NCBI GenBank assembly: GCA_037200965.1
Contig: JBBCGK010000001.1
Span: 96,001 to 160,000, forward strand
Direction of reading: 5' to 3'
Source: a bacterium
GTDB lineage: Bacteria; Patescibacteriota; Minisyncoccia; Phycocordibacterales; Phycocordibacteraceae
DNA length: 64,000 bases
The position numbers were made by a program. Shown here piece by piece: positions 54,001-64,000 of this stretch (the stretch's first letter is position 1; every line of letters starts with the position of its first letter).

Positions 54001-57000
54001 GAGCTTCTCGTTCGCGCGGATAGGCGGCGGATCACTGGTTGGATTGGAAGGCGCCGACGAGCCGAACAATCCGCCTGGCGGCGAATTCGCCAGAAGACGT
54101 CAGGGTGAGGATCGAGAACTTGGGACTGGCGGGGTCTTTCTTCGCCGTCAGCAATTTCTGGCCACGCCCGCCGAGTTCACGCACCATGGTATTCAAGGTC
54201 GAATCGTCGGTTCCCGTGAGCTTCGCCAGACGGGCCTGGGAAATACCGGGGTGCGCCAGCAGGCACGTAAGCACGACACACTGTCGCGCTGGCGTTCCCT
54301 GCATACCTATGCGGTCCGCAATAGCTTTCTTTGCCTCCCTGAATTTGTGCGTTGCTCGAACGAATTCCATCAAGAGCGACTCTTCTGCGGTTTCCGACGC
54401 GGTCCGCGCAAGATGAATCACTATCATTCTCTTGGCCATGGCATCCTCTTCGCTACATGTTGCACCAACTAGACTGCTCGGATTCTAGGCCGAACCCTGC
54501 TTGCCGTCAAGCAGCAGCCCGAACCGTGTTATTGCCGAATCTTCCTTTTCCGCTAGAATGCAGAAGTCCCGCATGCGGGGCACAAACATTCCGCGGTAGC
54601 TCAATGGTAGAGCAGCTCCCTGTGGCAAACGCAGCTTCCAAAGGAAACTTTGGTCGAAGAACGAGGTGAATTCGGGGAACCCCGAGCGAGAAATCGCGGG
54701 CAATCCCGAGCCAAGTCCCGAATGTCGGGAAAGGTGTAGAGACTATCTCGCAAGAGAGTACTTGGAAAGACGGATTAATCTTTGTCTTTCCCGGGAAGCG
54801 CCTCGCACCCTTCGGGGTGATGATATAGTCCATCCCTGCCAGTAATGGAAGGAGCGATGTAAGGAGTTGGTTCCAGGTTCGAGTCCTGGCCGCGGAGCCA
54901 GATAGGATTAACATCAGCGAAAGCTGGTGTTTTTCCTTTATTGACGGGCTTTTTTGGCGGTTCGAAAGTTCTTTTTTCGTCTGTTTTTTCTCCCATCATC
55001 TGCATGACACGGTCGGAGATGATTTTGAAGGCTTTATGGTATGAAATCTCCACTTTCTTGCCGTTTATCGTCGAGTTCGAAAATAACAGCGACATCAAAA
55101 GCTTCTTGTCGTCGACCATCTCGAGCGTGCTCCGGTTTACGTAAATCTTCCGCGCCTCCTTGGCCATCTGCAAGAAAGTCGATCCCATGTCGAAGTACTT
55201 GAGATTAGCGTTCTTGTGCTTATTGAGGCTATCCATCACTTCTTCCTGCTCGAGCTTGTACTGCGCGTACTTTTTCTGATAGAAGTCCTCGCTTATTTTG
55301 CCGTCGATCTTATCGTCATATATTTTGTCGAGCCGTTGCGTCGCCGTCTGATATCGTCGCTCCAGCTCGCCGGTTGCCTTTTCCCTGAATTCTATTTCCT
55401 CGCTATGGCTTTCCTTGAGTGCTTCCTGAACCCAGGTGAGCATATGCTCGATGGCCTCGTCATGCTTCGAGCTTAACTGCTCGATATTTTCCATCACTTG
55501 CTCGTCGACCTGCTCCTGCCGGACATATTCTTTCTGCGTGCAGTTTTTATAGTGATTGCAGTGGCCATACCAATGGCCTTTCTGTATCTCCCACGTTACG
55601 CGGCCCTTGCACTCCTCGCACCGAAACACGTTTTTGAAAAGCGAGTTGTGCTTGTTGTATCTCGGCGTGCCGTTGCTGTGCATGATGTCTTGGCACCGCA
55701 TGAATAATTCTTTGGTGATAAGCGGCTCATGTCCGCCCTGGGCGACTTTGCCGTTCCAGCGGTTCATGCCGTAGTAGAACGGATCGCCAAGAAGCTGATG
55801 CACGCGCGAGTGACTTACCTTGTTGCCTCCGCGCGAGCGCATGCCGAGCTTGTACATCTCATCGGCCAGTTTCTTGGTCGAGTGTATATTCGTGGCATAG
55901 AGTTCGAACATTCTTTTGACGATCGGTGCCTTATCCGGATCGAGCACGTGGATTTTGTGTCCCTTCTCGCCGACGGTTTTGTAGCCGAGCGGCGGCTTGC
56001 TCGGCAGCCAGCCTTGCGCGAGCTTTTCTTTCTGGCCTTTCTTCACGTTCTCGGAAAGGAGTCGGATGTAGTACTCGGCCGTGGCTACTTTGACGCGCCA
56101 CATAAACCACTCGTGCGACTTGGAGTCCTTGTGGAGCGTACAGCTCTCTTTGACGAGGTGGATGGTGTGCTTTTCATCGGCCAGTATCCACTCGTCGATG
56201 ACCGGCACGTCGGCAAAGTTGCGCGTGAGGCGGTCGGTCGTCTCGACGAAGATCGTGTTGATCTTCGTCTTGGTCACGTATTCGAGCATCTCGTGGAATA
56301 TCTTGCGCTGGATTTTGCCAGCCGCCGATTCCTGGATGGCGAATACCTTGACCATCTCGTAGCCGTTGCGATCGGCATAGTCGTGCAAGAGCTTTTCCTG
56401 CGCCGGAAGCGAGTAACCGGTATCCTCCTGATCCTTGGATGACACGCGGGCGTACCCCACGGCTCGCAATGGTTGATTTTCTTGATTCATTGTCATGGTC
56501 ATAATTGCTAATAATTTGTTGGTTCGAATTCGACGTTCGGTACCAGACACACCATATGCCTATTCGTTTGCGCTGCTAAGCCCGAGTTACCCACATTCCA
56601 CCAGTCTTTTGCTCGAAACGTTGGGTTTTGTTGGCTTTTGTTGGGTATTTGCAGCATTTTCCGGTGGCTACTGGTGGGTTCCGGTGACTCAAAAACGGTT
56701 AAATAAGGTCAGTTGCGGTTAAATGACGACCGGCCTTTCATCGTCATTTTTGCTACCAGCTTGGCTTTCATGTCGTTGATCTTCTTGAGGTTCGCGCCGT
56801 TAACTTCTTTATAATTTTCTTTAATTTCTTTTGAACCCTTAGCTTCTCTATCTTCTCCGTGCGATGCGGTATGCGCCGCGTGCCGGCCGGCATTTCGTGC
56901 AGATCGGCCGCCATCCTGCGCCAGATGTAGGACGGAAAGCAAGGTGATGCTTCGTGGCTTGAACTTGGCATCCGCGCCACGCACTTTCGTGGTCACGATA

Positions 57001-63000: not shown

Positions 63001-64000
63001 CGATTACGTCAATCAGGAAACCGTCGGCAATTTCTTTTTCAAACTCCTCGTCTTTACTGATATCTTTGCGATTGCCGTCTTGCTCCGTATTCAGATTCTC
63101 GCGCTTCCGTCACCGATCAGCTTCATTGCCGTTGTCGTTCTAGTAGTTATCTGCTTGCTTGGCATCATTGTTTTCAAGAATCACTACATTCTCACCATCA
63201 AGCCGAAGAACCTTTTTGAGAGGTTGCAGTCCGACATAAAGACGAGCATCCGGCTTGCCTCGGATCGGACCCGGTATTCCTATAAAAGCTGGAGCATTGT
63301 GCAGACTTCGCGCGTGCGAACGCAGGATCATCTCTCAATACTCAAAACTCTCTTTGAAGATCTCTGGCACGCCGAAAATTGGAACGACGTGATTTACACG
63401 CCGATGGTGCTTGCAAACTTGATCACCGACTACGCCAAGCGAAAGAAATATATCGACAGAGAGCGTGGCTGGTGGTTCCCGCAAACGCAGGTGGAGGTCA
63501 AGGCAAACAGCATGTCTACGCTCACCCTGAAGCTGAATTTCGAGCTTCAGGGCAAAGGGCCTCTGCGTATAGGTAGCCCAGACTATTTGTGGTTCGAGAA
63601 CGGTATTTTCGACATTCTCAAAGCGGTAGAGTCTCGTGTTGGAACTGCGCCGCAGGATACTCATCTGCTCAAATACGTCATTGATTTTTATCAGACCGCA
63701 CTTGCTGGCGACTACGAAAAAGATGAGTACAGCCGCTATCAGAAAGCAGTCGCGGGTCTATATGAGAATCAGGAGACCGACGCTTTCGAGAAATATCTCG
63801 ATGGCTTCTTTGCTTTGTATGAGAGAGTGCAAACCGACGACGAGCTGGGCGCGTATCTCAACGCTTACTTTGCGATCGGGCTGACTCTTATCGACGGCTT
63901 CGATTACGCCAAGTATCAGGAGGTAATAAAATCGCTCATCGGCGCAGACGGCCAGCTCACTCGCACCCGTGAGGAGCTTGCTCGGCTCGATCTGCCCGGA

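Follow-up and report, generated by a model that had tools for sequence, protein, structure and literature searches.

A candidate genomic island inserted by a large serine recombinase at the 3′ end of an intron-containing tRNA-Asn gene in a Patescibacteria bacterium

We analyzed a 64,000-nucleotide stretch of DNA (the window; positions 96,001 to 160,000 of contig JBBCGK010000001.1, assembly GCA_037200965.1) from a bacterium of the Patescibacteria, or candidate phyla radiation (CPR), in which a gene for a large serine recombinase (LSR) converges on an asparagine transfer RNA (tRNA-Asn) gene at the edge of a putative genomic island. An earlier note on this DNA had proposed a tRNA-associated integrative element at this position. 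The tRNA-Asn(GUU) gene occupies 54590–54900 on the forward strand and comprises a 5′ exon (54590..54623, ending in ...CTGT after anticodon position 35), a group I intron of 236 nt in the anticodon loop at 35/36 (54624..54859; Rfam RF00028, 64.1 bits, E-value 5.8e-14), and a 3′ exon of 41 nt including CCA (54860..54900, ending in GGAGCCA). The joined exons adopt the canonical 75-nt tRNA-Asn fold and end in CCA. ARAGORN at default settings overlooked this gene. Group I introns in tRNA-Asn of Patescibacteria were reported in 2026, with the interrupted gene being the sole copy in the genomes used for splicing assays and with ARAGORN likewise miscalling tRNA-Asn genes that carry the 35/36 intron (PMC13011429); that paper does not mention a recombinase. 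The intron is part of the host gene and not of the island, and the relatives of the neighbouring host genes all reside in Parcubacteria/Paceibacteria-type genomes.

The LSR gene lies on the reverse strand (54775..56502) and encodes 575 amino acids in its integrated state; the open reading frame extends over 54775..56550, and the start at 56502 was taken from gene callers and homologues. Pfam searches yielded Resolvase (PF00239, 4.9e-22) and Recombinase (PF07508, 1.2e-18) domains as well as a marginal Zn_ribbon_recom match (PF13408, 2.1e-05, 25.2 bits at a cutoff of 25.3). The catalytic residues R19, S21, S22, D90 and R91 were invariant in an alignment of 21 sequences, as were the zinc-ribbon residues C295, C298, C315 and C321 together with H314 and H317 in the alignment of relatives, and residues ~340–440 contain many heptad-like charged repeats. 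The domains and the invariant residues mark the protein as an intact, full-length LSR. Homology searches at E ≤ 1e-20 returned 1848 proteins, almost all of them from Patescibacteria or listed as unnamed proteins from metagenomes. The nearest database LSRs belong to phages, with at most 28% identity to any of them, and comparison to solved structures gave a match in the catalytic domain only.

The recombinase had been described in the earlier note as ending inside or adjacent to the tRNA 3′ exon, with its last codons read antisense through the T-arm, and the overlap proved to be even more extensive. The last 42 codons (...WLRGQDSNLEPTPYIAPSITG...) run antisense through the whole 41-nt 3′ exon and a further 85 nt of the intron, so that the stop codon is located in the intron and not in the exon. 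The part of the LSR that is homologous across its family stops at the W-L codons (54895–54900), the tail beyond consisting of antisense tRNA and intron. Where the tRNA-Asn is intron-less, as in locus L085, the LSR stop is TAA, the complement of nt 35–37; the intron at 35/36 splits this codon, which accounts for the 28 extra LSR codons in the window. In the alignment, relatives with as little as 53% identity share the ending ...HPIWL and, after it, R-x-x-DSN-x-x-P, the signature of the tRNA T-arm read in antisense.

To place this arrangement in a family context, we used 82 LSR loci fetched from metagenomes and genomes, with LSR relatives of 45–91% identity, for which tRNAs were called by ARAGORN with intron search and the exon ends then inspected. 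Counting the window, 58 loci had a tRNA in antisense orientation at the 3′ end of the LSR gene, namely 55 tRNA-Asn, two tRNA-Gln and one tRNA-Arg. Fifteen of the 55 tRNA-Asn genes carry the 35/36 intron and are named Thr, Tyr, His or Gln by ARAGORN. The register is constant, with the W-L codons TGG CTC forming the reverse complement of GAGCCA, the last six bases of the tRNA. The adjacency of LSR and tRNA is far beyond chance, with the same register in about 55 of the 82 related loci. The LSR of the window is one member of a large and apparently undescribed family, restricted to Patescibacteria (CPR) and located almost always at tRNA-Asn. Close relatives (77–91% identity) are found at tRNA-Asn in different genomes with wholly different cargo, which argues for recent and repeated mobility of the family.

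A few loci depart from tRNA-Asn. The two tRNA-Gln loci (L097 and L128) show the same register, their tRNAs also ending in GAGCCA, with the T-arm GGTTCGAATCC; the tRNA-Arg locus (TCT anticodon, L161) likewise has the same register, with the T-arm GGTTCGAGTCC, but a different 3′ end (...GGGGTAC). These insertions may represent off-target events or specificity switches. LSRs only 27–30% identical to the one in the window also adjoin tRNA-Asn (L030 4583–6203, and a second LSR in each of L100, L107 and L110), and the tRNA-Asn target is accordingly common to at least two distant LSR clades. Among the contexts of homologues of a deaminase encoded on the right flank, we furthermore came across a 545-aa LSR (L204 9318–10952, with L205 and L206 alike) that overlaps a tRNA-Trp(CCA) in antisense at its 3′ end; as it is only 28% identical to the LSR of the window, a different LSR clade has targeted another tRNA in the same manner.

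We then delineated the near junction of the element, attL, by comparing 27 loci with LSRs at least 75% identical. These loci contained six distinct 42-mers on the element side and 25 distinct 36-mers on the far side, and one identical 42-mer was present in 18 loci, where it was joined to 16 different continuations past TGGCTC. The constancy on one side and the variation on the other therefore place the junction in the last bases of the tRNA. DNA homology to elements without an adjoining tRNA ends at 54892–54895 of the window, and the left flank of the tRNA matches no family locus. Based on these comparisons, the start of the element falls in the final bases of the tRNA, and the tRNA as such is host DNA.

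The element-borne side of the junction, the P′ arm (54901..54941, forward strand), contains a terminator-like hairpin followed by a T-run, antisense in the last recombinase codons. The hairpin AACATCAGC-GAAA-GCTGGTGTT is located at 54910–54931, 9 nt past the tRNA and within the last ~15 codons of the LSR. Single-sequence folds scored against shuffled sequences indicated hairpins at the P′ position across 41 distinct family sequences, with stems differing by clade and a mean folding z of −4.1; a strict rule combining hairpin and T-run was passed by 22 of the 41. The reconstructed empty tRNA gene would read ...GGAGCAAAG and lack an encoded CCA, so that the CCA is supplied by the element. The final tRNA bases (C75 and A76, possibly more) are then element-derived, and the P′ hairpin probably serves as an element-borne replacement for the tRNA terminator.

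The other boundary of the island had been predicted to lie outside the window, and the earlier note had suggested to search for it as a direct repeat of 15–45 nt of the tRNA 3′ end. For this region we used L001, a public Logan contig that is identical to the window over a 12,639-nt overlap and adds 8.5 kb. No such repeat was present in the extended contig, even with three mismatches, and generic repeats occurred at chance level; the repeat test was the wrong one here, because a serine integrase does not need such a repeat. A more specific motif was obtained from relatives not joined to a tRNA (L088, L101, L110, L112 and L156), which carry TGGCTC, 17 nt and TAGAAC, with tails such as WLRTVNRVRT. 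The motif TKGCTC-N17-TAGAAC has a single occurrence in L001, at 18912–18940 and in attR orientation, where 0.01 are expected, and within 207 fetched loci (~2.9 Mb) it was found only at this site and at four LSR junctions. Looser att motifs were unusable owing to many chance hits.

This putative attR (TTGCTC, 17 nt, TAGAAC; about 70,273–70,301 in window numbering) is intergenic and retains an open LSR-tail frame, LLRAVRELRT..., resembling WLRTVNRVRT and WLRVVYDVRT. It coincides with a rise in GC content from 0.48 inside to 0.57 outside, the kind of breakpoint that had been proposed as a check, and the described AT-richness up to the window end was likewise borne out, with GC of 0.41–0.53 from 55 kb onwards compared to 0.58–0.60 for the backbone. 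The best terminator-like hairpin in the 16-kb stretch L001 3000–19400 lies 9 nt after attR, and the P′ hairpin ranks second, the two best hairpins thus each following one copy of the core by 9 nt. The hairpin beyond attR looks like the displaced original terminator of tRNA-Asn. The two junctions delimit an island of ~15.4 kb whose far boundary, at about 70.3 kb in window numbering, lies past the window end. In addition, locus L144 contains another candidate for a complete element, in which an attR of this anatomy lies at a distance of 10.5 kb from its tRNA-Asn; this case alone is not statistically strong.

The only sequence common to attL and attR is the core CGGAGC (54893..54898, tRNA nt 69–74), so the crossover dinucleotide must fall within it. 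In the tRNA arm the box TCGAAC follows TGGCTC after 12 nt; in the P arms T(A/C)GAAC follows it after 17 nt. In the structure and model of a Listeria integrase, the zinc-ribbon motif is shifted by 5 bp between attP and attB (PMC3783163); the P-arm box lies 5 bp outward in the same way, and the T-loop box is probably what the zinc-ribbon domain recognizes. The predicted empty attB consists of ...GGTTCGAGTCCTGGCCGCGGAGC joined to AAAGCTGGGCGGACCGACACGAAAGTGTCGG, with tRNA-Asn followed by AAAGCTGGGCGGACCGACAC. For attP two versions are predicted, GTTCTAAGTTCTCGCACCGCTCGGAGC joined to CAGATAGGATTAACATCAGC (version a) and GTTCGAAAGTCGTTCAGAAGGGCGAGC joined to CAGATAGGATTAAC (version b).

The island is composite. 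A gene-free segment at L001 16308–16877 (reverse strand) corresponds to the carboxy-terminal ~200 aa of a second, decayed LSR. Its reading frame is broken by stops and a frameshift, and more than 60 family members match it in tblastn with E-values of 1e-11 to 1e-20. This remnant ends in an attP-type junction, CTGCTC, 17 nt and TCGAAC, with the tail LLALLNDFRTFDW. The presence of a decayed LSR with its own attP-type junction 12.9 kb into the island therefore makes the island a tandem of two units: an intact proximal unit of 12.9 kb, which adjoins the tRNA and carries the intact LSR, and a distal relic of 2.5 kb that encodes a DKNYY protein and a 270-aa protein besides the LSR remnant. A tandem layout recurs in five other loci, with a family LSR at a non-tRNA junction and a different LSR 5–9 kb later, and in three of these five arrays (L100, L107 and L110) the second LSR was confirmed to adjoin tRNA-Asn. 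At least some attP-like junctions are consequently internal joints of arrays and not free circles; the idea that all non-tRNA junctions are free attP circles was rejected, since at least five of them lie inside tandem arrays. Separately, a sequence of 34 nt that precedes the LSR start (L001 5190–5223) recurs with 76% identity at 16119–16152, upstream of a 103-aa gene bordering the internal junction; this recurrence could reflect a shared promoter or operator, or chance.

Together, these data point to an island of ~15.4 kb in a Patescibacteria (CPR) genome that an LSR inserted at the very 3′ end of the gene for tRNA-Asn(GUU), an interpretation to which we assign a probability of roughly 85%. 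As in other tRNA islands, the integrase lies directly beside an intact tRNA, and a defined second junction marks the return to backbone composition. Insertion would proceed by recombination of attP with attB, with attP spanning the 3′ end of the LSR gene and the crossover falling inside CGGAGC. The zinc ribbon would recognize TCGAAC, the T-loop box of the tRNA arm, as well as the look-alike T(A/C)GAAC 5 bp further out in attP. The element restores the CCA and brings a terminator-like hairpin to the tRNA end. Because attP is located inside the recombinase's own 3′ end, integration would also swap the carboxy-terminal tail of the enzyme, replacing the attP-encoded tail by a tRNA-antisense tail. 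As attL resembles a tRNA end plus terminator, it could accept further elements, and such a reusable landing site would explain the tandem arrays; under accretion the newest unit would always be the one beside the tRNA, which fits the decayed state of the distal unit. Spread between cells could, speculatively, occur by natural transformation or with the aid of helper elements, some route of this kind being needed since no transfer machinery is encoded.

Several results weigh against this interpretation. With regard to the attachment sites, the attR motif was derived from only five sequences, two P arms are candidates for the cognate arm of the intact LSR, and the left-arm symmetry of the att sites could not be shown. 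RNAalifold found no common P′ hairpin across the family, as the stem register shifts between clades. At the junctions of two close relatives (L084 11603–11640 and L089 2586–2640, 87–90% identity), TGGCTC is followed by neither a tRNA nor a TAGAAC-type arm, which the proposed anatomy does not account for; the L084 junction is surrounded by housekeeping genes, with a tRNA-Gln at a distance of 1.3 kb. Among the core genes of the island, no recombination directionality factor was recognized. Furthermore, no excised circle was detected, and no empty attB in the relatives within reach, which included no close relative of this species. The four public contigs with the left-flank MarR-like protein, retrieved by exact look-up, all carry the LSR, the orthologues of the neighbouring DinB (80 genomes, at most 53% identity) revealed no synteny and no empty site, the contexts of homologues of the right-flank deaminase were not syntenic, and the predicted attP junctions were absent from IMG/VR. 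As no empty site or circle was found, present-day mobility is deduced from the comparative data.

The same observations bear on the strongest competing explanation, that the island is a fixed relic, inserted long ago, with an LSR that is domesticated or decaying. All public assemblies of the locus are integrated and identical in sequence and the distal unit is clearly decayed, in line with such a history and with the failure to find a circle or an empty site. The proximal LSR, in contrast, is full length with all invariant residues, and its 77–91% identical relatives occur at tRNA-Asn elsewhere with entirely different cargo, which renders a relic possible, though on balance unlikely. Less probable still is a chance match at attR, by which the island would end elsewhere or have no defined end. 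The small number of sequences behind the motif and the many chance hits of its looser versions speak for this explanation; the low expectation for the exact motif, its restriction to LSR junctions in ~2.9 Mb and its coincidence with the step in GC content, an intergenic position, an open reading frame for an LSR tail and the region's best terminator hairpin speak against it, and we regard it as improbable.

The genes inside the island fall into a conserved set next to the recombinase and a variable cargo. The first core gene (56709..57293, reverse strand) encodes a 194-aa protein with 98 homologues, all unnamed, and is syntenic beside the recombinase in L084, L085, L086, L088, L101 and L110. 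The earlier note had listed a winged-helix-turn-helix protein, an assignment that for the 194-aa protein stands at the fold level only: residues 25–120 of the AlphaFold model have predicted local distance difference test (pLDDT) values of 80–90, and Foldseek gave weak matches to RepA_N-type initiators, DnaD-N and MarR. The protein is a possible regulator, initiator or directionality factor. It is followed on the same strand by a 69-aa core gene (57262..57471), which is called in public assemblies, is conserved at the DNA level with L086 and L088, and whose product had no PHROG or Pfam family match. Further core genes on this strand encode a DUF5659 protein of 80 aa (57477..57719; Pfam PF18903, 8.3e-10), also present in L084, and a 221-aa protein (57869..58534), present in L084, L085 and L110, which had no Pfam family match and a single-sequence AlphaFold model unusable at pLDDT 40. 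The latter is the last core gene before the variable cargo.

The cargo genes within the window are all on the forward strand, and the assignments given for them in the earlier note were reproduced by Pfam and PADLOC. An AbiEi antitoxin/regulator gene (58637..59254; PADLOC AbiEi 2.8e-58, Pfam AbiEi_4 weak) is adjacent to the gene for an AbiEii nucleotidyltransferase toxin (59251..60285; PADLOC 2.3e-77, Pfam PF08843 5e-15), the two overlapping by 4 nt as in an AbiE system. An adenine methyltransferase of type II from the EcoRI-methylase family follows (60290..61360; Pfam PF13651 4.4e-133, PADLOC MTase_II 2.3e-118), and next to it a GmrSD_N(DUF262)-HNH nuclease recognized by Pfam (61362..62465; PADLOC REase_II 1e-146, full length). 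The nuclease fits a model of type II restriction enzymes over its entire length, and methyltransferase and nuclease therefore form one restriction-modification pair. The last gene encodes a DUF2254 membrane protein, with the first 506 of 827 aa in the window (62483..64000, open to the window end) and the full gene at L001 11122–13605 (Pfam DUF2254, 1e-10). On these annotations, the cargo consists of anti-phage defence genes (AbiE and type II restriction-modification) and of proteins of unknown role, including DUF2254 and DUF2726. DNA and tblastx comparisons of L001 with the sequence downstream of non-tRNA junctions revealed no common cargo. As a separate observation, L101 19667–21610, downstream of an attP-type junction, encodes a Toprim/DUF3854 primase-like protein beside a type III restriction-modification pair, and some related elements may replicate when excised.

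This gene content makes it very improbable that the island is a prophage or an integrative conjugative element (ICE) with a serine integrase. Temperate phages and conjugative elements are the most familiar carriers of such integrases, and the nearest database LSRs are indeed from phages. On the other side, no PHROG family matched any of ten island proteins other than the LSR (the products of the four core genes, AbiEi and five unknowns from the distal part), Pfam detected no capsid, tail, terminase or lysis domains and no relaxase, coupling protein or type IV secretion domains among the island open reading frames, and 15 kb consisting mostly of defence genes is too small. The least probable alternative, by which the tRNA-Asn and its intron are themselves cargo and the real insertion site lies further left, can appeal to the tRNAs often carried by mobile elements, to left-flank genes of types also found on them (the UmuD-like/DinB pair, the MarR-like and the cold-shock protein) and to a slight GC dip to 0.54 at 53–55 kb, but is contradicted by the 16 variants past TGGCTC that face an identical element side in 18 loci, by the end of inter-element DNA homology at the tRNA 3′ end, and by a left flank of backbone GC without a match in any family locus.

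Integrative elements driven by LSRs are well known, and their targets are typically protein-coding genes. The LSR-borne tRNA-Asn island shares with phage-type LSRs (phiC31, Bxb1, A118/LI, TP901-1 and SPbeta) the combination of Resolvase, Recombinase and zinc-ribbon domains, short att sites with few shared bases and, as in the Listeria integrase, a P-arm box 5 bp further out. It differs from them by the low sequence identity, by a tRNA 3′ end as the target in place of a protein-coding gene, by an open reading frame that crosses attL, by the rebuilding of CCA and terminator, by its CPR hosts and by an element that is not a phage. The earlier note had called an LSR at a tRNA unusual, in agreement with the use of t(m)RNA genes by only 14 of 297 serine integrases compared to 44.5% of tyrosine integrases, a use by serine integrases that was presented as previously unreported and in need of proof (Mageeney et al. 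2020, PMC7192596). Those TIGER-predicted islands (Mageeney et al. 2020) are, like ours, computational predictions of tRNA use by LSRs; they are scattered and from cultured bacteria, whereas here one family recurs in about 55 independent loci at one tRNA and in one register, with its att anatomy resolved.

The integrase of the filamentous phage phiRSM is likewise a serine recombinase with a tRNA 3′ end as att core, namely 13 nt of the 3′ end of tRNA-Ser(UCG) shared by attP and attB (PMC3816273). It is a small, resolvase-like enzyme without Recombinase and zinc-ribbon domains, unlike the 575-aa LSR with a 6-nt core at tRNA-Asn described here, which is not of the phiRSM type (~200 aa, resolvase domain only). 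Islands at tRNAs that use tyrosine integrases (P4-like, SaPI-like and actinomycete ICEs) resemble the present one in the integrase beside the tRNA, the restoration of the 3′ end by element DNA, tandem accretion at the same tRNA and accessory or defence cargo; here the catalytic family is another, the 15–50 nt repeat is missing and the crossover is confined to 6 bp at nt 69–74. A change of a carboxy terminus upon integration is reportedly known from the integration-dependent immunity of mycobacteriophages, said to have been described by Broussard and colleagues in 2013, in which attP lies inside the repressor gene, the integrase is of the tyrosine type and the regulatory role was demonstrated. 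Both systems have attP in the 3′ end of a gene; there the repressor is altered, whereas here it is the recombinase's own tail, with a speculative regulatory effect. What seems new in the present case is the combination of a family of LSRs specialized on the 3′ end of a tRNA, an open reading frame across attL, the rebuilding of both CCA and terminator, and accretion in tandem. A search of the full text of one literature library for serine recombinases in Patescibacteria/CPR returned nothing relevant, which is not proof of novelty.

Serine integrases are the main tools for the insertion of large DNA and have been thought to avoid tRNA genes, while the comparative evidence from about 55 independent loci suggests that a whole family targets and repairs a short conserved tRNA end. 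The natural attB/attP pairs are directly testable in vitro and offer a possible route to genetic tools for Patescibacteria. Such a family would explain the build-up of defence genes beside tRNA-Asn, which is single-copy and intron-bearing in at least some of these very small genomes, and pipelines that overlook the intron-containing tRNA will misread the carboxy terminus of the recombinase. A wider conjecture, which we hold to be distinctly doubtful, is a Patescibacteria-wide radiation of LSRs specialized on tRNA genes (mainly Asn, but also Gln, Arg and Trp), in which the acceptor stem and T-arm would serve as an attB arm, attP would mimic the T-loop box 5 bp further out, the tail swap would act as an integration-state switch on activity or directionality, and attL would be a reusable pad on which arrays of defence islands are built.

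Outside the island, the left flank of the tRNA (51170–54439, backbone GC) encodes a Peptidase_S24 protein (UmuD/LexA-like) and a Y-family polymerase, a pair of a type frequent on mobile elements, as well as a cold-shock protein, a 77-aa protein and the MarR-like protein. Past attR, L001 19045–21104 (~70.4–72.5 kb in window numbering, GC 0.57) encodes the nucleoside deaminase, an XhoI-like nuclease and an Eco57I-like methyltransferase, the latter two of which appear to constitute a further restriction-modification system outside the island. Finally, the window contains a second segment of low GC at 38000–45500 (0.40 compared to 0.59), with genes for GT4 and GT2 glycosyltransferases as well as a Polysacc_synt flippase and a PMT_2-like protein. 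A gene for a Fic protein marks its left edge; the segment contains no recombinase and looks like an ordinary variable surface-polysaccharide locus.

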